Below the pieces are notes generated by a model. The model made no database searches. It was not told the DNA's origin and saw nothing but the letters and a program-made list of their open reading frames with translations. Position numbers and translations under genes: made by a program. Positions 22,130-33,900 of a stretch of 64,000 nucleotides of DNA are shown here, in pieces. The first letter of the stretch is position 1. The number at the start of each line of letters is the position of its first letter. Location: assembly GCF_988243305.1 (NCBI RefSeq), contig NZ_OZ547136.1. One strand, given 5' to 3'.

Positions 22130-23332
22130 ATGGCAGTATTGACGGATACGAAAGCAAGACATATCAAACCTGATGACAAACCATTGCCCCATGGGGGAAT
22201 TACCGGACTGACCCTTCATCCTTCTTCAGTAAAGGGGCGGGGGAAATGGGTTTTTCGTTATGTAAGTCCGGTGACACAAAAAAGACGTAATGCTGGATTG
22301 GGAACTTACCCAGAGGTCAGTATTGCTGAAGCTGCACGTACTGCCCGGATAATGCGAGAGCAACTTGCTGCAGGTGATGATCCTCTGGAGATTAAAAAGG
22401 CTGAATCTGAGAAAGTCGCTATCCCAACATTTGCCGATGCAGCCAGGCGTGTACATGCAGAACTGTCTCCTGGATGGGAAAATCCAAAGCATGTAAGGCA
22501 GTGGTTATCGACGCTTGAGAATTACGCGTTTCCTCAACTGGGAGCAAAAACGCTGGATTCGATTACGGCTGCGGACGTGGCAGAAACACTGCGTCCAGTC
22601 TGGTTAACCTTATCAGAAACGGCAAGCCGGGTTAAACAGCGCATTCATGTTGTTATGCAGTGGGGATGGGCGCACGGTTTTTGTGTAGCAAATCCTGTTG
22701 ATGTGGTTGACCATTTGCTTCCTCAGCAGACAAGAGGACGTGATGAACACCAACCCGCAATGCCCTGGAGGCAGTTACCGCTTTTTGTGGCGACCAGTGT
22801 GTATACCGATGAACCTTATAATGTTACCCGCGCACTGTTATTAATGGTGATACTTACAGCAACTCGCTCGGGCGAAGCCAGGGGAATGCGCTGGGCTGAA
22901 ATTGATTTTCATAAGCGGGTATGGACTATACCTGCAGAAAGAATGAAAGCTAGGCTACAGCATCGTGTTCCTTTATCCCGGCAGGCTATTTACATTCTGG
23001 AAAATATACGTGGCCTGCATGATGAACTGGTGTTCCCTTCACCCAGAAAGCAGCAGATCCTTTCCGATATGGTGTTGACAAGTTTTCTGCGTAAAAAGAA
23101 AGCCGTCAGTGACATTCCGGGGCGAGTTGCCACGGCACATGGTTTTCGCTCAACATTCAGGGACTGGTGTAGCGAACAGGGGTATTCGCGGGATCTGGCG
23201 GAAAGGGCGCTCGCTCATACGCTGAAAAATAAGGTTGAGGCGGCATATCATCGTACTGATCTACTGGAGCAGCGTGTACCGATGATGCAGGCATGGGCGG
23301 ATTATGTGATGTCTCAAATTGTGAATAAATAA
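22130..23332 (+). CDS. int: P4/CP4-57-type tyrosine integrase
   Basis: 400-aa ORF. N-terminal DUF4102-like LTDTKARHIKPDDKPLPHGGITGLTLHP...GKWVFRY. Catalytic R (TATRSGEARGMRW), HxxR (HGFRSTFRDW) and Y (VEAAYHRTD). Confidence 0.9.
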   Translation: MAVLTDTKARHIKPDDKPLPHGGITGLTLHPSSVKGRGKWVFRYVSPVTQKRRNAGLGTYPEVSIAEAARTARIMREQLAAGDDPLEIKKAESEKVAIPTFADAARRVHAELSPGWENPKHVRQWLSTLENYAFPQLGAKTLDSITAADVAETLRPVWLTLSETASRVKQRIHVVMQWGWAHGFCVANPVDVVDHLLPQQTRGRDEHQPAMPWRQLPLFVATSVYTDEPYNVTRALLLMVILTATRSGEARGMRWAEIDFHKRVWTIPAERMKARLQHRVPLSRQAIYILENIRGLHDELVFPSPRKQQILSDMVLTSFLRKKKAVSDIPGRVATAHGFRSTFRDWCSEQGYSRDLAERALAHTLKNKVEAAYHRTDLLEQRVPMMQAWADYVMSQIVNK

Positions 23333-23518: not shown

Positions 23519-25336
23519 TCACTCCTGCTGAGACTGAATTATTCCTAGTGCGTCATAAATCAGTCTTCTGCGTAGTTTATTGTTTTTATCTGCACCATAT
23601 AACATAAATATATTTTCAACTTTTTCTTCAGGTGTTCTGAGATAATGGATAAGAAAGGTTATCATTCCAACACAATGGAATAAAGTGAATCCATCAAACA
23701 GGCTTATCAGGTTTCCTTTTTTTTCCCGTGTTGTAAGTATTTTTTCGCGGGTAAGAATATTTGCCAGTTCATGGGGGGCTGATATGTTTCTGCTGTCTAT
23801 AATGTCATTTATTTTACCAAGGGCTATATCAACTTCCTGTAATAGGTTATTTATCATAGCTGAGTGAATGTTATTGGTTTCATGTTCCTGACAGTTTATG
23901 AACTTATAAATCATTGAGTTATACAGAAATATTACTCTTCCTAATAAATATGTGTTTGTGTCATTTTGAAGACAGGACTCTGGGTATTCGTGATCCAGTG
24001 AAATAAGGTTAATGGACTCGCCCTGATAAGTCATAAAATAATTGATGTCATTTAATAATGCTCGGATATTTACATGATTTTTACTGAATTTTATTTTAAA
24101 TGCTATCTTTAGTATAGCAAACGCGGCAATGATAAATCCAAAAGGTAATTTCTCATAGTTCAGTTTATTGATGGTGCGATGAACACTTTCAGTCTTTCCT
24201 GAAGTAAGTTGTCTCAAACAGTTAACAAATTCTGTATAGCCATTTAAGACATAATGGCATGAAGAATCTTTTAAAGAGTTTTCTATGTTTTGTAATGTGA
24301 CGCCGTTGTTCAATGTATAAATGTAACCGCCAAAGACAATGTTTTCAATCTCAACGACACAATTTATTGTTTTTTGTTCAGGATAAAGATAAATATCAGA
24401 AATACTATAGTCTCGTATTGCGTCAATGGCATCCCACGATAATGCACTGTCAATTTTCAGTGTATAAAATGGTGAGTTCTCATTAGGAAAGTAATATATG
24501 TATTTGTTCAGTATATTCATTACATCTATTGGGTTGGTTAAATATAATAACTGGCATTCATATTCTGAAACTTCTCTTTCGCTTATCAGCATTTTATATA
24601 AAGTTGCCAGGGTGCTTGTTAATGAAGTTCGTCTTTCGAAAGCCAGTAATATAGTGAGATAATAACATGCAACCTGAACTTTATCTAAGTCAGAAATTAT
24701 TTTTTCCTTGTCTTCATTACTTAAATAAAGCAGATGTTTACAGGTTTCTTTGCATGTGTTGATAGTTGCGATAAGTTTTGTTTTTCCTGGTGTACTGTTT
24801 TTGCGAATATTACGAATGAATTCATATACGCCATCAAAGATATCTTTGAAATGCGCATTCGCTGGCGTGTATCCGGATAAACATAACTTAACGTAATTTC
24901 GCAGATATGTCCTTGCAGCATGATATATATCATCCTCATTATCCGGTATCTGAGTGAGAAAAGAATGAATATGATAGTAAAATGCCATCTCATTATCCGG
25001 GCGATATGTGTTCCTGATGTCGAGTGCGAGAATCATTGGTACAATGTCATTAAAATATTTTTGTTTTATTATTTGATGTGTTTTGTCTGTAAAAACAGAA
25101 TAGTGCATTAGCTTAACATAGAGATCTTCATATCTCCTAAATATAACTTTTCGTTGTTCTTTACTCAATACTTGTTCTTTATCAATAATGTTTATTAATT
25201 CATCAAACATGTCGCCCAGTGAATGTTGATGTGAGGAAAAATTTTTAATATTTCGGATGTCACGGCTATTCTGGTTTTTAGCCAGAACACCAAAACATGA
25301 AAAGACATCATACATTATAGTGATAAAATTATACAT
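23519..25336 (-). CDS. hypothetical 605-aa protein, low-GC orphan
   Basis: Long uninterrupted ORF in a strikingly AT-rich segment. I recognise no domain. Has one or two hydrophobic segments (LPFGFIIAAFAILKIAF, FTLFHCVGMITFLIHYL). Confidence 0.6.
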   Translation of the reverse strand: MYNFITIMYDVFSCFGVLAKNQNSRDIRNIKNFSSHQHSLGDMFDELINIIDKEQVLSKEQRKVIFRRYEDLYVKLMHYSVFTDKTHQIIKQKYFNDIVPMILALDIRNTYRPDNEMAFYYHIHSFLTQIPDNEDDIYHAARTYLRNYVKLCLSGYTPANAHFKDIFDGVYEFIRNIRKNSTPGKTKLIATINTCKETCKHLLYLSNEDKEKIISDLDKVQVACYYLTILLAFERRTSLTSTLATLYKMLISEREVSEYECQLLYLTNPIDVMNILNKYIYYFPNENSPFYTLKIDSALSWDAIDAIRDYSISDIYLYPEQKTINCVVEIENIVFGGYIYTLNNGVTLQNIENSLKDSSCHYVLNGYTEFVNCLRQLTSGKTESVHRTINKLNYEKLPFGFIIAAFAILKIAFKIKFSKNHVNIRALLNDINYFMTYQGESINLISLDHEYPESCLQNDTNTYLLGRVIFLYNSMIYKFINCQEHETNNIHSAMINNLLQEVDIALGKINDIIDSRNISAPHELANILTREKILTTREKKGNLISLFDGFTLFHCVGMITFLIHYLRTPEEKVENIFMLYGADKNNKLRRRLIYDALGIIQSQQE

Positions 25337-25476: not shown

Positions 25477-26239
25477 GGTGATGCCTTCTGACGATAGATT
25501 AATGTTGTATTCTATTGGTATCTGGAGACCATATGGCAACAGTTACAGTATATTCTCCCCGCTGTAATTCCTATAAAGTGTACCGTTATGATCACAGCAC
25601 CTCAGATCATGAGCGTTTCCAGTGCTAATCCTGCAAACGTGTATTTCAACTGAATTACATCTACGAAACCCGAAAACCAGGCATTAAAGAGCAAATTGTT
25701 GAAATGGTTCATAACGGAGCCGGGGGTCGCGATAGCTCCAGAACGCTGAAGGTGGATATCAACACCGTCATTCTCACTTTAAAAAACGCTCACCACGTAA
25801 AGTAACCATATCTCCAGCCGCCAGTGTCGATGTGGCACTTATCTGTGAACTTGATGAACAATGGAGTTTTGTCGAAAACAAAGCTCGTCAGCAGTGGCAC
25901 TGGTACGCGTATAAGACCAAAGCTGACGGTGTGCTGGCTTACACTTTTGGTCCTCGCACTGATGAAACATGCCGTGAGTTGCCGGAATTCCTGAAGCCAT
26001 TCTCCGCAGGCATGATAACCAGAGACAACCGGAGCAGTTATACCAGAGAAATGCCACAGGATAAGCATCTTGTCGGCAAGATATTTACCCGGCGCATTGA
26101 GCGCAACAATCTGACACTTCGTACTCACATCAAACGACCTGCCCGGAAAACGATTTGCTTTTTACGCTCCCTGGAAATTCACGAAAAGCCATTGGTTCAT
26201 TTATCGAAAACACATGTACTACTGACAGGAGTCATTACC
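25477..26239 (+). mobile_element. divergent IS1-family element, decayed
   Basis: Left end ggtgatgcc... resembles the IS1 IR, and the right end ...gtcattacc is a partial match. InsA-like frame MATVTVYSPRCNSYKVYRYDHSTSDHERFQC*SCKRVFQL... carries an in-frame stop. InsB-like ORF 25832.. (ICELDEQWSFVENKARQQWHWYAY...RIERNNLTLRTHIKR). Length ~763 bp. Confidence 0.65.
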
Positions 26240-26435
26240 AGGGCCTCTTTTGCTGTTTTTTTGCCATGAATGATAATGAGAATCGACAGCGATAAGGGAA
26301 AAGTAAAATAACACTAATGCTGTCGTTTTCTATCATATTGATTTTTAATTATTTATTGTCTTTTTTCTCAACCCATTTTTTTACGCAGACAAATTTACCC
26401 GGGGAATACAAACTGTAACGACAGTTCACCACACT

Positions 26436-26744
26436 ATGGGGGATAAAATGCCAGATCAATCCGGACACTGCAGGACTCCTTCACGCATCTTACGGATGCC
26501 TGAACTGAGCCAATTGTTAGGTATATCTCGTTCGACAATTTACGAAAAAATGAATCCGTTATCGAAATACTACGATGCAACCTTCCCCAGGCCGGTACGT
26601 CTTGGTAGTGGTTCTGTGGGCTGGCGTTCATCAGCTATTGACGAATGGCTTACTTTACATACTGTACCTGCCAGATCAGCAGTCAAAGGTGTTAATGACG
26701 AAGTGAGACATACGCTTTCTTCAGATATGACCATGAGCAGATAA
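26436..26744 (+). CDS. alpA: AlpA-family (MerR-like HTH) phage/island transcriptional regulator
   Basis: RILRMPELSQLLGISRSTIYEKMNP...YDATFPRPVRLGSGSVGWRSSAIDEWL matches the AlpA/Prophage CP4-57 regulatory family pattern. Confidence 0.8.
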   Translation: MGDKMPDQSGHCRTPSRILRMPELSQLLGISRSTIYEKMNPLSKYYDATFPRPVRLGSGSVGWRSSAIDEWLTLHTVPARSAVKGVNDEVRHTLSSDMTMSR

Positions 26745-26851
26745 GTTTTTGTCATCACGTGATCACCTCAGGAGGAAAAAGAAGCATAAGAACAATTTAG
26801 CCAGAAGTTTAATTGATAAACAAAATTTCCAGCATTCATTGTTGAAAGAGC

Positions 26852-26905
26852 AGCTATTGTCGCTATTGTCGCTATTGTCGCTATTGTCGCTATTGTCGCT
26901 ATTGT
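26852..26905. repeat. six tandem 9-bp units (agctattgt then cgctattgt x5), iteron-like
   Basis: Directly readable perfect tandem array. A 2-unit version of the same motif recurs at 27353..27390 upstream of the DUF3987 gene. Confidence 0.9.
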
Positions 26906-26937
26906 AGCGGTAATTGCTGCTATAACCGAAACGTATT

Positions 26938-27204
26938 ATGAAAAAGGAAGCATTTATGCCTTACATCAAACCGGATATGCCGTATTCAGTATATGCATGA
27001 CCATCAATGATAGGGAAGGCAATAATTAAAGCTCAATACAATAAACAAGTACCTCTGACTCTGGTTGCAATGTCAGTATTAACAGCGATGTCAATTGCCT
27101 GTCAGAATCAGGTTGACGTATGCAGTCCCGGAAATTTACGTGGGGCCGTTAATATTTACACTATGGTTCTGGAGAAAGGGAAAAGACCGGGGGAAAGGTA
27201 TTAG
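26938..27204 (+). pseudogene. truncated, frameshifted duplicate of the 5' end of the DUF3987 gene
   Basis: MKKEAFMPYIKPDMPYSVYA* followed by ...AIIKAQYNKQVPLTLVAMSVLTAMSIACQNQVDVCSPGNLRGAVNIYTMVL... This parallels MKREAFMCLLAPENPYPIYALPPLVRNAIIETQKNTQAPLAMVATSALTAISIACQNQIDVCRPGNLHGPVNLYSLIL of the downstream gene. Confidence 0.6.
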
Positions 27205-27404
27205 TGAAATAATTTCCGGAGGTATTAAGAATGAGAAATATGAATGATATTTCGTGGTGAATAATACAGTCTTCACTGAATTAACCTTATCGGTTTATTA
27301 AACATCAGATCTACAAATGCTCTGTATTTCTCAGAGCATCAGGTCTGAATAGCAGCTATTTTCGCTATTGTAGCGGGATTTGCTGCTATTTTACTAACCC
27401 ATTA

Positions 27405-28856
27405 ATGAAAAGAGAGGCTTTTATGTGCTTACTTGCACCAGAAAATCCTTATCCGATATATGCACTACCACCGCTGGTGAGAAATGCAATAATTGAAACT
27501 CAAAAAAATACACAGGCACCTTTGGCTATGGTGGCAACATCCGCATTAACAGCGATCTCAATTGCCTGTCAGAATCAGATTGACGTGTGCAGACCTGGAA
27601 ATTTACATGGGCCTGTTAATCTTTACTCTCTGATTCTGGCTGATTCCGGTGAAAGGAAAACGACCGTGGATAAAGTGTTTATGAAAGCATTTTATCTCAG
27701 GGATGAAGCCCTGGCGGATGAATACGCGAAACTGGTTGAGAATTACAGTACAGAAAAGGAAATATGGGAGCAAAAACAAAAAGCGCTGGAATCAAAATTT
27801 CATAAAGAGATTCGTGCCGGTAAAGATTACAAGGCAACAGAATCAGAGCTTGAAACGCATCTGAATAAACCTCCTGTTCCGCCGCAGATACGTCGAACAA
27901 TTTTTAATGAGACAACGATAGAGGGAATGTTAAAATATTACTCCGATAGCAATCGCTCTTTTGCTCTTGTATCCAGTGAAGGGGGGGTAATTTTTGACAG
28001 CCGGGCCATGAGTAAACTGGGAATTATTAACACTTTGTGGGATGGAGGTTCTCTTTTCATCGACAGGAAATCATCTCCCGGAATTAATTTGAAGGAGCCA
28101 AGACTGACGATATCGGTGATGATTCAGCCTGATGTTTACCACAAAGGTTTTTGTACGCGAAAAAAAGAAATTGTGAAAACGTCAGGACATCATGCAAGGT
28201 TTTTGATGTGTCAACCAACATCAACGCAGGGGACAAGGATAATAACCGGAGATAATTATTCATCACAGTATCAGGATTTGTTTGAAGAGAGGATCAATGA
28301 GCTTATTGATGAAAGTCTGGCGATGAGTGGTGAACGACGTTGCCTTCACTTTTCTCCTCAGGCTGCCAGAATCTGGACGGATTATTACAATGATGTGGAA
28401 TCGAAGCTGGGGGGATTGGGGCCTTTAAGACATTGCCGGGAATATGCTGCTAAAAATGCAGAGTATATGGCAAGACTGGCAGGACTTATTTACCATTCGA
28501 GCGGTGAAGAGGGGGAGATTTCCCCTTACACTGCAGAAATGGCGAGAGAATTAGCAATATGGTACGGTAATGAGTATGTGCGGTTGTCTAATCCGTTAAC
28601 TTTTGACAACTCTGCCCTGACCGTACCTGTGCGACTCATTCCAGAGGAGCTTGAACTTTTCAACTGGATAAAAAGCTATTGTATTGAGAAGGGGATCCTC
28701 TGTATGAAAAAAAATGACATTTTACAGCGTGGTCCGAACCGTTTCCGGAAAAAGGATAAAATCAACTGGTTACTGGATTTACTGTATGAACAAAACAGAG
28801 TTGTACCGGTTATTGAGGGAAAAACGTTGTGTGTCGCACCTAACTTTGACCTCTGA
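27405..28856 (+). CDS. DUF3987 / YfjI-like protein (P4-alpha-related replication/helicase-loader-like island backbone protein)
   Basis: 483-aa ORF. N-terminal YPIYALPPLVRNAI...APLAMVATSALTAISIACQ...SGERKTTVD is the typical DUF3987 signature. Same position as yfjI in CP4-57. Confidence 0.75.
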   Translation: MKREAFMCLLAPENPYPIYALPPLVRNAIIETQKNTQAPLAMVATSALTAISIACQNQIDVCRPGNLHGPVNLYSLILADSGERKTTVDKVFMKAFYLRDEALADEYAKLVENYSTEKEIWEQKQKALESKFHKEIRAGKDYKATESELETHLNKPPVPPQIRRTIFNETTIEGMLKYYSDSNRSFALVSSEGGVIFDSRAMSKLGIINTLWDGGSLFIDRKSSPGINLKEPRLTISVMIQPDVYHKGFCTRKKEIVKTSGHHARFLMCQPTSTQGTRIITGDNYSSQYQDLFEERINELIDESLAMSGERRCLHFSPQAARIWTDYYNDVESKLGGLGPLRHCREYAAKNAEYMARLAGLIYHSSGEEGEISPYTAEMARELAIWYGNEYVRLSNPLTFDNSALTVPVRLIPEELELFNWIKSYCIEKGILCMKKNDILQRGPNRFRKKDKINWLLDLLYEQNRVVPVIEGKTLCVAPNFDL

Positions 28857-29676
28857 ACGACTTAATCGTTGAGTACATATAGTCTCCTCTGCTACTTGCG
28901 GAGGAGACTAATGTCTTTACCATGTCAGCGTTGTATTAGAAAACTCTGGTACAGGTCAGTCAGTAAATATAACTGGTGTAACCACTATTTACTATTGGAT
29001 AGAGTGTTGCTCAGGATATTGTCGGCTTTAGTCTGAGGTGAGGTGGGGCCTTCATTGTTTTCGTGTTCAATAAATAATTTAGGTTAATTAGTATTATTAG
29101 TGGAAGTTATGTGATCTGTTATGTTGTCTTGTACGCACTTAACACTGGTTACGTACCGGAACACTATTAGAGTATGTTATGGCTCTGTTACAGTTTATAG
29201 GTATGAAAAAATATAATCTTTCCTGTATGAAATAATATTCTTATGGTGTGTGGGGTATGGTCTGTATACCATCATTTTTATGGTGAAGTTAAATATCTGT
29301 AGAGGCCTTAAGCTGGGTCGCTGTTTTTACTTAATGGTACAGAAGTATTAATAGCGGTGTTGCCTGTGGCTACCCGATACTGGCTTTTGTGAATGTCAGA
29401 TTACTTCCTGTAAGTGATTGAATGGTACTTCCTTAAACTCAATTCTATGAGGTGTGTTTTTACCATTGTAATTCGTACTGGTCCTCAGTTTAAGTGAGTC
29501 TTACTGTACTCTGAAATATTACCTCTTTGGAGTAATGAGGTAATACGAAACAGTTTTATCAGGTTGTCTGTGCTGCTGGTTACCTCGTTTATTAATGCCG
29601 CGGTACGGCGTTTCTGTACTCTCAGTATTTATGTAATTCCACCTTCCTGTAACTTTTATAAAGTAAGGACTATAAA

Positions 29677-30240
29677 ATGTATAATGCTAATCCCAATTAC
29701 GAAATGGACTTCATGATTCTGAAAGACGTGAATGAACACATGGAAGGTCTGTTTCAACGTTTTTCTAAACTGTTACCTTTCAGAATTGATTTTGCCTACA
29801 GGAAAGACACGCCCAGTTTTGGTCATTCCTGTAGGCACAGTATGTGTATTGAAATGCACCGCTTACTTAGTGAAACCCAAACGATGCTGGCGGGATATTA
29901 CTGGGTAATGGAATATACGTCAAACAAGGGACTTCATATTCATTTTATCGGCTACTTGGATGGGCAACGTCACAAGAAATTTTATCGGATATCCAGGCAA
30001 CTGGGAGATATCTGGAGTCGGATCACGGAAGGGGAGGGTTATTTTCACCTGTGCAGTACTAAAGACAAATACTCGGTGCGTATCGATCACGTGATTCACT
30101 ATAGTGATAAGTCTGCGGTAGACGGTTTACGTTACGCCCTTAGCTACCTGGCTAAACAGGATCAGAAAGAACACGGTATTATTCTGGGCCGTAGCAGGCT
30201 TCCCGAAAAAAGCAACCGGGGCCGACCACGACATAACTGA
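29677..30240 (+). CDS. inovirus Gp2-family / YagK-YfjJ-like protein (HUH-type)
   Basis: 187-aa ORF with LLPFRIDFAYRKD and GLHIHFIGYLDG (HUH-like) motifs; same position as yfjJ in CP4-57. Confidence 0.7.
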   Translation: MYNANPNYEMDFMILKDVNEHMEGLFQRFSKLLPFRIDFAYRKDTPSFGHSCRHSMCIEMHRLLSETQTMLAGYYWVMEYTSNKGLHIHFIGYLDGQRHKKFYRISRQLGDIWSRITEGEGYFHLCSTKDKYSVRIDHVIHYSDKSAVDGLRYALSYLAKQDQKEHGIILGRSRLPEKSNRGRPRHN

Positions 30241-30394: not shown

Positions 30395-30739
30395 ATGGTT
30401 CATAAATCTGACAGTGATGAATTAGCTGCACTGAGGGCAAACATAACTTGAAGCTTATGGGATTGAATGGCGACGTAAACCGCAGAGTCCTGTGCAGTGC
30501 GTTTCCGTATTATCCACGGATGAGAAAGTTGCGTTATTTTGTCGACTGTTTCGCGGGCGTGATGATGTATGGGCCCTTCGATGGGAAAGCAAAACCAGCG
30601 GCAAATCAGGGTACTTGCGGGCCTGTGCTAACGAATGGCAGCCGGGAATAGCGGTAAACTCCGGATAAAATGTGGGGACTGCGCTCACCGTCAGTTGATC
30701 CCTGTATCTGATCTCATCATCTACCACTACACGGTTTAA
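30395..30739 (+). pseudogene. 5' remnant of an archaeo-eukaryotic-primase/helicase-type conflict-system gene (two frameshifts, premature stops)
   Basis: Three frame segments: MVHKSDSDELAALRANIT* / LEAYGIEWRRKPQ...STDEKVALFCRLFRGRDDVWALRWESKTSGKSGYLRACANEWQPG...* / KCGDCAHRQLIPVSDLIIYHYTV*. From memory this matches the conserved N-terminus of that family. Confidence 0.5.
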
Positions 30740-30902: not shown

Positions 30903-33900
30903 TTGGAAGTAGAAATGTGGGATGGTGGCTTACAAGAACAGGAAGTATTGGCTATCGAGAAAATAAAAGCTGCTTTTTCAGTCAACGTATCTAAGCCTGA
31001 CAAGCCTTTCCGTAGCGGTTCAATTAGTGAGCAGCTAAAAAGCTATGGTTTTATCGGCAATGAAATGTTCCCTTGGAAAGGTTATGCAGGTTTTCGATTT
31101 GTTGAGGCAAAAAAAGAGGGGGAATTCGATTTAGTTATTGTAACACACTGCAACGTGATCATTGTTGAACTGAAAGACTGGAACCATCAGCCTGTAACCG
31201 CACGCGGAGATACTTGGTTTAAAGGCGATAAGAACATGGGGCGCTCGCCAGTAAGCGTGACTCGTAGCAAAAAATTCATGCTGGACAAAAAACTCAAGCG
31301 TCTGGTAGACCGTTTTACGAACAAAGGCTATATCCCGATTGTTCATTTTTTTGTTGTGATGACCGGCAATGCAGATTTCAGCGCGCTGCCGGAGGAACAA
31401 CGGCGCCATACGATCTCGTTAAAAGATTTCCTGAAGTTTGCCGATCGCGGGAGCTTCAATAACTATTTCAAACCGCACCCAGCTACCAAGGTTCTTAACA
31501 AGGATTTCCATCTTTTCGATGATTTGTTCCTAGGGCCTCAGACGGCACCAAAAGCCTTGAGAGTTAATGGCTATGAAGCTAATGATATGATTTTCGAACA
31601 TCCTAAAAAGGTGTATCGAGAATATCTGGCAAAATCTGAGATATCAACGAACAGCGAAGCGCTACTCAGAGTATGGAATTTTAGAAATATAACGGGAACG
31701 AAAGCGAATACCCCGGAAGGACGAGCTCAGATTGTTTCACGTGAGCGCGAAGTGTTACAGCACATCAATCACCAGAATCGTGACCTGTATAACCACTGTC
31801 TCAGGTCTTTGACGAGTTTTCAGAAAGACGAGGTGACGGCCGAGTATAGCGAAGTCTACGAAGTTCCGCCGGGTCATGTCCGGTTTAATGAGTTTATCGG
31901 AAAATATGGTAAGAACTTTTCTGATATGGACCGCTTGAATGTGGTGAAACTGCTCATTGCAAAGTTTAGTGATCTCCATGAGATGAAAATTGCGCACAGG
32001 GATGTCGCCGATCACAGTCTGTGGATTTCACCTTCAAAAGAAGTTGCTCTTTCGAACTTTATTTCGGCTTACCACCAGCCAGCCGGAACGGTTGGCGATT
32101 ACCGTAAGCTTTTATCCGTAGGTGCAGTCCACGTAAAAGACATGCTTGATAAGGGCGAGCTTACGCCTTTTCAGCAAGATGTTCATACTCTGGGCCTTGT
32201 CGCCTGGCACTTATTTAGCGGTATGCGCATGTCGCCAAAGAGTCTGGAGAAAGTACAGGACAACATGCTAAACAGCCAGCACTGGTATTCATCTGTATTA
32301 CGGGATGCCGTTGCCGCAAAATTCACTTCTGCAACAGAATTCTTTGATGCCCTGAAACAAGCCGAACCTGCTGGCAAGGATATTCCAACATTTGATGATA
32401 CTGAGCTTGACCCTTACCGACATGCTATCAATCACGCTCGTCAATACCCGGAAGACGATGGCTTTCAGTTTCAGGTCGAAACAGTCGACAAAGAAGTCTA
32501 TATCTCGAAAGGAAGGCTCGTGAAGGCTTGGCTGAATGTTGGGGGACAGGGATACGATCCGTCAATTAATTTCCAGGTTCTGAAGTTTTTAAAGCAGGTT
32601 GAGCGGCTTTCTTCAGTTAAAACAACGTATCTACCTCAAATTCGTGAATTCGGTATCGCATCAAAATCATCAAGCCTATATATGGTCACGGATCAGGTAC
32701 AGGGAGAAACCTGGGATAAAATAGCGGTCCCCGATGATGAAAAAATCGACCTCATTGGTAAGTTTGTCGCCGCCGTTGAGCACTTACATGGTCTGGGTGT
32801 TTCTCACGGGGACATCCACCCTGGCAATGTGATATTTGAGACACAGAGCCGTTTGCTTTTTCTCATCGATATCCCCGATTTTTCACCGTCCGGTGACGAA
32901 CCTAAAAATCACAGTTACAGCCCTGAATACATTGATAATTGTACTTCTTTTGAACGTGACAACTATGCAGTGATGAAGATGTCCTGCGAGTTGCTAGGCA
33001 TGTCATGGGGGCTGGAATCAGACATTTATCCGACAATCGCGAATGCTATCCGAGCAGAGCTGGAAGATCCGGTTTTTGGGTTTAAGGATTTAGGCCGCTT
33101 TAAAAAAGCGATAGATAGTAATGACCTGGTGCCAGAACAAGACCTGATAGAGATTACTGCAGGAAATGCCGATGAAATAATCTCTATTCTGCCTGATAAC
33201 GGGCATCTGTATGTCAAAGTTAAGTCAAATCCTAAAGCGCCAGCTGAAGTAAATGTGACTTTCTCTGGGATTGGTGGCAGTTTTACTGCGGTGTTCAACA
33301 AAGATCAGAAGACGCTGGTTCATGGCTTCAGGCCACGGGCTCGCGTCACAATTCGTAAGCAAGATATTGATGAAAGCCAGTTCGAAATTGATACTGGCAT
33401 CAAGATTATTCCCGGCAGTCCGCAGGATCTGTCGGCGTTGACAGTATTGCTTAATGAAGAAGAATCTTTTGCGCGGGCAATCGAGTTGATTGCCGCAACT
33501 GAAGATGTTCAGGTACAAGAGCCACTTACGCTTCAGCTAAAAGATACCTTTGCAAGGCTTGATAAGCAGACGCTTGAACCTTCTTTAAGAGAAGTGCTGG
33601 AAATCCCAACAGTGAAACTGTGGCGCGCCATTCTGGATACTGAAACAGAATCTTATCCAAACATTGAAATCAGCGGTGAAGTGGTCCCGGTTGCAGATGC
33701 TCATGGAGAGCTTCTTCTCCCTTACTCTGCTGATGTTGATCCACTCGGTGCTTTCAGAAGTAGTGATGAAGTCGAAGCCTTACAGGTCGATCAGGAAGGT
33801 GTTGAGCGATTTATTGGTGAAGTGTCACTTAAGAAGTCAGAGCTCAAAGAGATTCGTCTTGTCAAAGTTAGTTCAGCAGCCTTCAAGCTGAAGGATTCTG

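Follow-up and report, generated by a model that had tools for sequence, protein, structure and literature searches.

A 9-bp tandem array in a CP4-57-like genomic island: one arm of a dyad element that accompanies yfjI, and candidate iterons of the predicted YfjI helicase

The locus described here lies in a 64,000-nucleotide stretch of contig NZ_OZ547136.1 (assembly GCF_988243305.1), the whole of which is referred to below as the window. The region of interest is a CP4-57-like island inserted next to dgcT, in which an array of 9-bp repeats stands between an alpA-family gene and the gene encoding YfjI, a DUF3987 protein. Genomic islands, satellites and phages often encode YfjI/DUF3987 proteins, which are also present in Escherichia coli K-12 (on CP4-57) and O157:H7. 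The question raised by the locus is what these repeats are and which protein, if any, reads them. The 9-mers proved to form one arm, the forward one, of an imperfect dyad in which inverted units come after forward units; they are not a free-standing array. An element with the core GCTAY, a 9-bp register and the same forward-then-inverted order is inherited with YfjI/DUF3987 helicase genes across Proteobacteria. The tandem array alone is an ordinary slippage polymorphism, and its interest lies in the conserved, helicase-linked element that it exposes. From this comparative evidence we consider it somewhat probable (roughly 55%) that the 9-mers are cognate iterons of the YfjI helicase, the dyad probably being the origin or loading site of the excised island.

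The array and the two dyad elements of the window

An initial reading of the window, made from its letters and open reading frames (ORFs) and termed here the sequence-only reading, had noted six tandem 9-mers upstream of yfjI. These were confirmed as five copies of GCTATTGTC (26853-26897) and one of GCTATTGTA (26898-26906), with GCGGTAATTGCTGCTAT coming straight after. Tandem Repeats Finder (TRF) placed the array at 26853-26905, with 5.9 copies and a score of 106. The two-unit copy noted at 27353-27390 was also present, both by direct reading and by inverted-repeat alignment. What had been overlooked is that both copies of the motif are imperfect inverted repeats. In copy B the arms occupy 27348-27367 and 27371-27390, and the dyad ends 32 nt 5' of the yfjI start. 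In a scan for clusters of GCTAY/RTAGC pentamers, dyad A gave the pattern '>>>>>><>'; its forward arm, which precedes a relic of yfjI, has six units compared with two in the other copies of this element.

The exact 9-mer was confined to the array within the 64-kb window. One-mismatch matches elsewhere numbered 25 against 13.5 expected, which is near chance, and 8 of these 25 lay inside the two elements. The pentamer-cluster scan of the 64 kb revealed no place beyond dyads A and B, and none near int. Additionally, there was no repeat array 3' of yfjI (28850-29700), where phage-inducible chromosomal islands (PICIs) carry theirs.

Alignment of the region between alpA and yfjI showed that 26889-27215 matches 27355-27680, the longest ungapped stretch being 203 nt at 78% identity. 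As the sequence-only reading had proposed, each motif copy precedes a homologous, yfjI-type gene start, the two being ~78% identical at the DNA level. The first of these is a relic. It begins with an ATG at 26956 and carries a 10-bp deletion near 27172 relative to both the intact copy and the corresponding relic of the M19 island, and its homology to yfjI stops at ~27215, just past the Walker A region. Its earlier description as truncated and frameshifted after ~85 codons was therefore right, with the addition of a still earlier in-frame TGA (26998-27000) after 14 codons. RefSeq annotates 27007-27204, within the relic, as a 'DUF3987 domain-containing protein'.

Alignment and unit counts thus agree with the proposal of a duplicated module in which the repeat has expanded in one copy, but a recent duplication in place was not borne out. 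The M19 and PT62 islands, whose alpA is unrelated to that of the window, also carry a relic followed by an intact yfjI, with two units in each motif copy, and their homology to the window starts exactly at the motif. Because this arrangement is shared despite the unrelated alpA, and the copies have diverged to ~78% identity, the duplication was neither recent nor local. A single-copy arrangement was found in locus L010, which has alpA, a dyad and then a yfjI 96% identical to that of the window. The alignments are best accommodated if the relic is what survives of a second module that has diverged; the window has two dyads because an older, diverged alpA-dyad-yfjI' remnant stands before an intact dyad-yfjI-yfjJ module. 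The last ~45 bp of the junction between the two resemble, weakly and by eye, the sequence that follows the alpA stop codon in M19-type islands.

The element in other yfjI loci

Further instances were sought by a pattern scan of viral contigs and of loci retrieved with YfjI proteins; extra viral-contig scans with YfjI queries contributed few loci. The dyad of E. coli K-12 comprises four GCTATT-like hexamers, two forward and two inverted (GCTATT-TCC-GCCATT/AATAGC-GG-AATAGC). In all enterobacterial-type loci that carry the element the dyad lies ~30-60 nt 5' of yfjI, L135 being the only locus of this type without it. The palindromic instances from viral contigs and YfjI-retrieved loci all lay between an alpA-type and a yfjI-type gene. 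The dyad was still recognisable where the YfjI proteins were 36-45% identical and the flanking sequences unrelated. The motif variant tracked the type of YfjI and not that of AlpA, as the K-12-type motif occurred both with K-12-type AlpA (L007, L015, L035) and with M19-type AlpA (L018, L027, L039, L044). These two AlpA classes align over just 28-29 residues, at 32-34% identity.

The position of the element relative to yfjI was not constant. The order alpA-yfjI-dyad-yfjJ was found in Morganella (L073) and Comamonas (L068), and yfjI-dyad-yfjJ, by a one-mismatch match, in L117. Budvicia and a Serratia-like contig had the order yfjJ-yfjI-dyad, and the dyad was directly 3' of yfjI in Rhodoferax also. 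In Halomonas (L120) the dyad and yfjI follow an XRE-type gene, and in Marinobacterium (L124) the dyad is 5' of yfjI with no ORF of at least 45 aa within 320 nt upstream. In Dechloromonas and its relatives the element lies 1.36 kb upstream of the yfjI homologue, in front of a 310-aa ORF. An element found on either side of yfjI is therefore hard to reconcile with a yfjI promoter, operator or leader RNA.

A more distant set of 80 yfjI loci (28-36% identity, one genome per species) was scanned for clusters of at least four GCTAY/RTAGC pentamers. This revealed 56 clusters in 37 of the 80 loci, compared with 1.2 per shuffle replicate, and ~48 of the 56 lay 56-270 nt 3' of the gene. In their usual form, ~26 nt of unrelated sequence separates four forward units (spacing 6-9-9) from four inverted units (9-9-6), and in 12 of 14 loci the forward-to-inverted offset is exactly 54 nt. 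A search allowing any pentamer found the same spacing in 13 further loci and in none of the shuffles. Four other cores occur in these loci, GCGAC/GTCGC (L059, L071, L088, L090, L096), GCTAA/TTAGC (L050, L087, L092, L108, L113), GTGAC/GTCAC (L084) and GCGGT/ACCGC (L099), and the two arms matched each other in every case. An array beside the yfjI homologue was thereby found in at least 50 of the 80 loci. Extended arrays accompany primase neighbours (Prim-Pol, PriCT-Toprim), and compact 2+2 or 3+3 dyads accompany YfjJ-type neighbours. Arms of 5 and 6 units stand beside intact genes in L078 and L118; therefore, unit number varies naturally within the family. A search for k-mers enriched upstream of the distant yfjI homologues found nothing, because the distant arrays lie 3' of the gene, and they also escaped a scan for strict palindromes. 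Undibacterium (L045, 5067-5114) has a form that stands between 2+2 and 4+4, a 3+3 compact dyad, GCTATT TTT GCTATT CCC GCTACG / AATAGC AAA AATATC AAA AATAGC, which lies ~680 nt 3' of yfjI.

The 4+4 arrays with the 54-nt offset that lie ~60-150 nt 3' of the yfjI homologue (L055, L062, L065, L076, L078, L079, L083, L086, L093, L103, L118 and L122) sit in an open frame of 105-280 codons, which starts at the end of yfjI and would encode a peptide of the form ATATxATxAT...VAxVAxVAVA. Analysis of codon usage revealed that all 48 forward units start with GCT, which makes up 11% of Ala codons in the adjacent genes, and that 40 of the 48 inverted units start with GTA, which makes up 17% of Val codons. 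The alternative cores alter the encoded amino acids, yet the arms stay complementary. This pattern of codons and arms indicates that constraint acts on the nucleotides and not on protein; the fold and spacer comparisons given below speak against constraint on RNA. The repeats of L085, L097, L099 and L115 resemble coding Ala/Thr linkers, but codon analysis and co-variation of the arms show such arrays to be constrained as DNA even where they fall within ORFs.

YfjI as candidate reader of the repeats, and the alternatives

In the AlphaFold2 model of YfjI (predicted local distance difference test, pLDDT, 86) an N-terminal domain precedes an AAA+-like core, and a disordered linker (residues 392-404) leads to a C-terminal winged helix (405-477), which reached a pLDDT of 90 when modelled alone. 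With the whole protein, Foldseek returned MCM helicases as nearest matches (best E 2.4e-4), followed by ComM and RuvB. The C-terminal domain matched DNA-binding winged helices such as those of BlaI/MecI and MarR, and the MCM4 winged helix, with template modelling (TM) scores of 0.65-0.71 and weak E-values, as expected for 76 residues. YfjI is thus predicted to be an MCM-like AAA+ helicase with a C-terminal winged helix. A sequence search of YfjI against the PDB gave no match, and the protein has DUF3987 plus a winged helix only, with no primase domain. A PriCT-DUF3987 protein has been shown experimentally to be an oligomeric, Walker-dependent 5'-3' helicase, and DUF3987 has been placed in superfamily 6 (PMC11724360); the domain is often fused to primases (PMC5862659). 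No description of the element was found in the literature on yfjI, DUF3987, AlpA and CP4-57, and the literature searched yielded neither a functional study of YfjI itself nor an origin or DNA target for any DUF3987 helicase.

The pentamer varied together with one residue of the winged helix. At the position aligned with Q435, Gln was present in 20 of the 22 loci with T at pentamer position 3, and Arg or Lys in all seven loci with G at that position (Gln in 20/22 versus 0/7, Fisher p = 2e-5, a statistic that ignores phylogeny). The same difference separates two close pairs. L118 (GCTAC, QQF) and L059 (GCGAC, LRR) have domains that are 68% identical and differ at the Q435 position, as do L055 (GCTAC, QQY) and L084 (GTGAC, QRH), with domains 77% identical. 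This co-variation is the strongest pointer to YfjI as the reader of the pentamers, and the Gln/Arg versus T/G switch may amount to a simple recognition code.

The sequence-only reading had suggested that the 9-mers are binding sites, at an origin or an operator, for the DUF3987 or the AlpA protein. The comparative evidence favours the DUF3987 protein, YfjI, and makes an origin-like role plausible, but leaves AlpA unsupported. The repeats have what would be expected of iterons, namely a regular register (period 9, six units), linkage to yfjI homologues and co-variation of repeat and winged helix. In the mechanism that we propose, the C-terminal winged helix of YfjI would bind the pentamers, and the opposed arms would bring helicase complexes into a head-to-head arrangement of the kind found at other origins where helicases load. 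On this view the dyad would most likely be where the excised island loads its helicase or starts replication. Because the dyad of enterobacterial islands lies between alpA and yfjI, the bound protein might there also feed back on yfjI and dampen its expression. The six-unit arm would have been produced by slippage in the relic copy.

Several observations weigh against this proposal. No array was found in ~30 of the 80 distant loci by exact-match criteria, and the compact 2+2 dyad and the 4+4 array are equated through their shared pentamer, register and adjacency to yfjI, and not by alignment. The extended arrays lie inside an ORF, and a contribution at the protein level therefore keeps some weight. 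The co-variation draws on ~29 related sequences, and the Q435 position falls in the second helix of the winged helix and not in the classical recognition helix. Beside the window dyads DnaA boxes were absent, matches being at chance level and the nearest one-mismatch box lying inside yfjI at 27665. No AT-rich unwinding region is marked beside the dyads either, the GC content around both (0.38-0.41) being like that of the surroundings. Finally, we know of no CP4-57-type island that replicates after excision.

The element could be an operator and nothing more, at which a dimeric or tetrameric regulator, YfjI or another island protein, controls yfjI transcription with no role in replication. Dyad symmetry immediately 5' of the gene in every enterobacterial-type locus carrying the element fits this explanation, and the Rep proteins of iteron plasmids repress their own genes at inverted repeats. 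A promoter-like TTGAAA-16-TATTGT also overlaps the second 9-mer of copy A, but such matches occur at chance frequency (11 versus 9.8 expected) and this one is absent from copy B and from K-12. Most relatives, moreover, have the array 3' of yfjI, 1.36 kb upstream of it or within a downstream ORF, which misfits a promoter-bound operator, and we regard a purely regulatory role as unlikely. About as improbable, in our estimate, is that YfjI is a mere neighbour of repeats bound by some other factor, either a host protein or a YfjJ/Gp2-type protein acting as a rolling-circle-type initiator at a hairpin. Compact, hairpin-capable dyads do co-occur with YfjJ-type genes, with perfect palindromes in L068, L073 and L131, and YfjJ weakly matches the REP_ORF2-G2P family. 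The extended arrays, however, have the same pentamers and register and occur with primases, never with YfjJ, and yfjJ is found on either side of yfjI while the dyad stays beside yfjI. The co-variation of the pentamer with a YfjI residue does not fit a bystander role, and lineage-specific changes of core argue against a conserved host factor.

Two further explanations have very little in their favour by comparison. That the repeats are the site through which AlpA, an excisionase-type winged-helix protein, activates the downstream operon would accord with the location of the element directly downstream of alpA in E. coli islands, and AlpA is known to activate PICI genes (PMC6092414). We hold it very improbable, as one motif type is found with the two dissimilar AlpA classes described above. 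L120 and L124 have the motif but no alpA-type gene upstream; primase-linked modules carry it as well, and it can lie 3' of yfjI. There is, moreover, no copy upstream of alpA in K-12 and none near int or elsewhere in the window. AlpA as binder is thus not upheld, since the motif follows YfjI type and neither occurs nor varies in step with AlpA. The Pseudomonas aeruginosa AlpA antiterminator was set aside as a model, being a larger, different protein with a 6-bp site inside a promoter. A hairpin in the alpA-yfjI transcript, acting as terminator or attenuator, processing site or stabiliser, is likewise a remote prospect. The fold of copy B has an energy of -22.8 kcal/mol (z = -2.2), with UUUUAC coming next, but copy A folds no better than shuffled sequence (z = -0.14), and neither copy A nor the K-12-type elements have a U tract after them. 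Sense and antisense strands were equally often the more stable among the 16 compact instances (8 versus 8, with a mean difference of -0.6 kcal/mol), and the dyads contain C.A mismatches and G.U pairs with equal frequency. In the extended arrays the 4-nt spacers of one arm do not complement those of the other, and no Rfam family matched. An intrinsic terminator or structured RNA was accordingly rejected on folding, terminator scan, strand comparison and Rfam search.

Comparison of repeat number among related islands, a check put forward by the sequence-only reading, showed that copy A can have between 2 and 6 units. Among complete genomes of E. coli, with allele counts derived from identity bands and a synthetic 3-unit query, six units were found in one record (strain 3059, 99.9% identical to the window), five in 12, four in 124, three in 88 and two in about 806. 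Spans matched by a 266-nt query across copy A (266, 248, 239 and 230 nt) and by a 2.6-kb query (2601, 2592 and 2565 nt) differed by whole-unit steps. Unit number differed among strains that were otherwise 99.5-99.9% identical, and copy A therefore behaves as a variable number tandem repeat (VNTR). Copy B showed no 9-bp steps: in 60 records spread across the 1403 from E. coli, its spans were 271, 270 or 272 nt. Slippage would be easier in copy A because its ancestral units are alike at 8 of 9 bases, compared with 7 of 9 in copy B, and replication slippage is the likely origin of the expansion. Constraint is probably weaker on copy A than on copy B, and the default reading is that the six-unit expansion is probably neutral.

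As in other bacterial VNTRs and slipped-strand microsatellites, the units are short, perfect and tandem and their number is strain-variable. Those repeats, however, are anonymous or act as contingency tracts in coding sequence or promoter spacers, and here the unit is a half-site of a conserved element. We think it rather probable that the two-unit dyads are real while the six-unit array and the whole of copy A are inert, a slippage-prone microsatellite decaying beside a pseudogene. Copy A precedes a dead gene and ranges over 2-6 units while copy B was constant in the sample. This is compatible with YfjI iterons as the explanation of the element and rivals just the idea that repeat number matters. 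On the other side, YfjI acting in trans could still bind copy A, and arrays of 5-6 units occur beside intact genes in relatives. We find it unlikely that the relic dyad and the yfjI dyad form a two-site system like P4 ori plus crr, or like iteron handcuffing or decoy sites, in which slippage between 2 and 6 units would be a heritable dial on YfjI titration and thus on how the excised island replicates, how many copies it reaches or how stable it is. The 9-bp VNTR is a minor point, although it may be of use for marking strains, or as a set of natural alleles on which dosage effects could be studied.

The element resembles several known systems in part. In theta plasmids (F, P1, R6K, pPS10) inverted copies of the iterons near the rep gene autoregulate it, and repeat number matters for control. 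Plasmid iterons are likewise short repeats in a fixed register beside a replication-protein gene, and repeat sequence and protein specificity shift together. They are 17-22 bp long and form one direct array, whereas here pentamer or hexamer cores at 9-bp spacing form a dyad, with no DnaA boxes or AT-rich 13-mers near those of the window, and YfjI is a predicted MCM-like helicase and not a Rep-type initiator. In the P4 ori/crr system, to which the sequence-only reading had compared the 9-mers, the alpha primase-helicase binds type I repeats through its C-terminal winged helix. The likeness is functional only: both have an island with a P4-type integrase and an AlpA/Vis-type gene, a replication protein with a C-terminal winged helix and two repeat clusters. 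The analogy fails in that YfjI has no primase domain, the second cluster of the window is part of a gene relic and the P4 type I repeat TGTTCACC had no match in the window. In addition, the 50 best fold matches of the YfjI winged helix did not include the origin-binding domain of P4 alpha.

At site II of SV40/polyomavirus large T antigen (four GAGGC) and at the papillomavirus E1 site, a hexameric helicase assembles head to head on opposed pentanucleotide units. By analogy only, the dyad would likewise present several opposed 5-6-bp units for a helicase with its own DNA-binding domain. The viral helicases, however, are of superfamily 3 and not of the MCM-like fold, the sequences are unrelated and the hosts here bacterial. 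The PICI origin consists of two iteron sets next to (3' of) pri-rep in an int-alpA island, and was examined in a plasmid maintenance test (PMC6092414). The distant YfjI relatives also carry two opposed sets 3' of the gene, although the spacer between their sets is not clearly AT-rich as in PICIs and Staphylococcus aureus pathogenicity islands (SaPIs). The window element differs in being a compact 2+2 form located 5' of yfjI, so the PICI position is not reproduced, and no packaging or capsid genes were noticed in its island. What the comparison yields is a candidate cis site with a fixed geometry (opposed arms in a 9-bp register, which in extended arrays are offset by 54 bp) and, in the Gln/Arg versus T/G switch, a first hint of protein-DNA recognition. 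If true, recognition of the element by YfjI would define how a class of MCM-like bacterial helicases locates its loading site, and would help to mark replication modules in unannotated islands.

Features and genetic context of the island

The gene order of the island is int, a 605-aa ORF, an IS1 remnant, alpA, dyad A, the yfjI relic, dyad B, intact yfjI and a yfjJ-like gene (Table 1). The order alpA-yfjI-yfjJ is identical in CP4-57 of E. coli K-12.

Table 1. Coordinates, strand and supporting evidence of the features of the island (positions in the window)
Feature	Position	Strand	Evidence
P4-type integrase	22130-23332		
alpA-family gene (alternative ORF start 26436)	26448..26744	+	Pfam Phage_AlpA, E 5.6e-19; RefSeq annotation in strain 3059
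Dyad element A: AGCA + six forward 9-bp units + inverted arm TAGCGGTAATTGCTGCT	26849..26923	.	Sequence; inverted-repeat relation to copy B
9-bp tandem array, VNTR	26853..26906	+	TRF period 9, 100% matches; E. coli complete-genome alleles 2-6 units
yfjI' relic: first ~85 codons of a yfjI paralogue	26956..27204	+	Alignments
Relic/intact-module junction	27216..27347	.	M19/PT62 alignment; comparison with single-copy L010
Dyad element B: two forward + two inverted units	27348..27390	.	20-nt-arm inverted repeat, 80% complementary
Intact yfjI, DUF3987 (alternative start 27405)	27423..28856	+	Pfam DUF3987, E 5.3e-84
yfjJ-like gene (YagK/YfjJ, inovirus Gp2-type), third gene of the module	29677..30240	+	Weak Pfam REP_ORF2-G2P and YagK_YfjJ_C matches; RefSeq annotation

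The 605-aa ORF (23519-25336, - strand), between int and alpA, is without a Pfam match and occupies the position of yfjH in K-12; M19-type islands have a different hypothetical ORF of ~545 aa in its place. The IS1 remnant (25533-26269) is frameshifted and ends ~170 bp 5' of alpA, and may have displaced or replaced the native alpA promoter region of this island. A palindrome centred on TCACGTGA (TTTTTGTCATCACGTGATCACC) was found right after the alpA stop codon (26746-26779) and is specific to this type of alpA.

The spacer between yfjI and yfjJ (28857-29676) is unusually long, with 820 bp free of genes. Within it lie a hairpin that strongly resembles a terminator (28880-28910) and AT-rich stretches (29050-29300, GC 0.30); a repeat array is absent. 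It is in the corresponding spacer that the dyad of Morganella and Comamonas sits.

Downstream of the yfjJ-like gene, 30395-30730 is a remnant annotated by RefSeq as a 'TOTE conflict system archaeo-eukaryotic primase domain' protein, the gene for which is intact in M19. It is followed by genes for a 1656-aa AAA-domain protein and a 478-aa hypothetical protein (30903-37306), and the island thus probably carries, in these two segments, the degraded form of a module for defence or conflict. ARAGORN found no tRNA or tmRNA gene in the 64-kb window, despite the P4-type integrase directly beside dgcT. The right-hand 27 kb of the window is a mosaic of sugar-utilisation genes, IS elements and pseudogenes.

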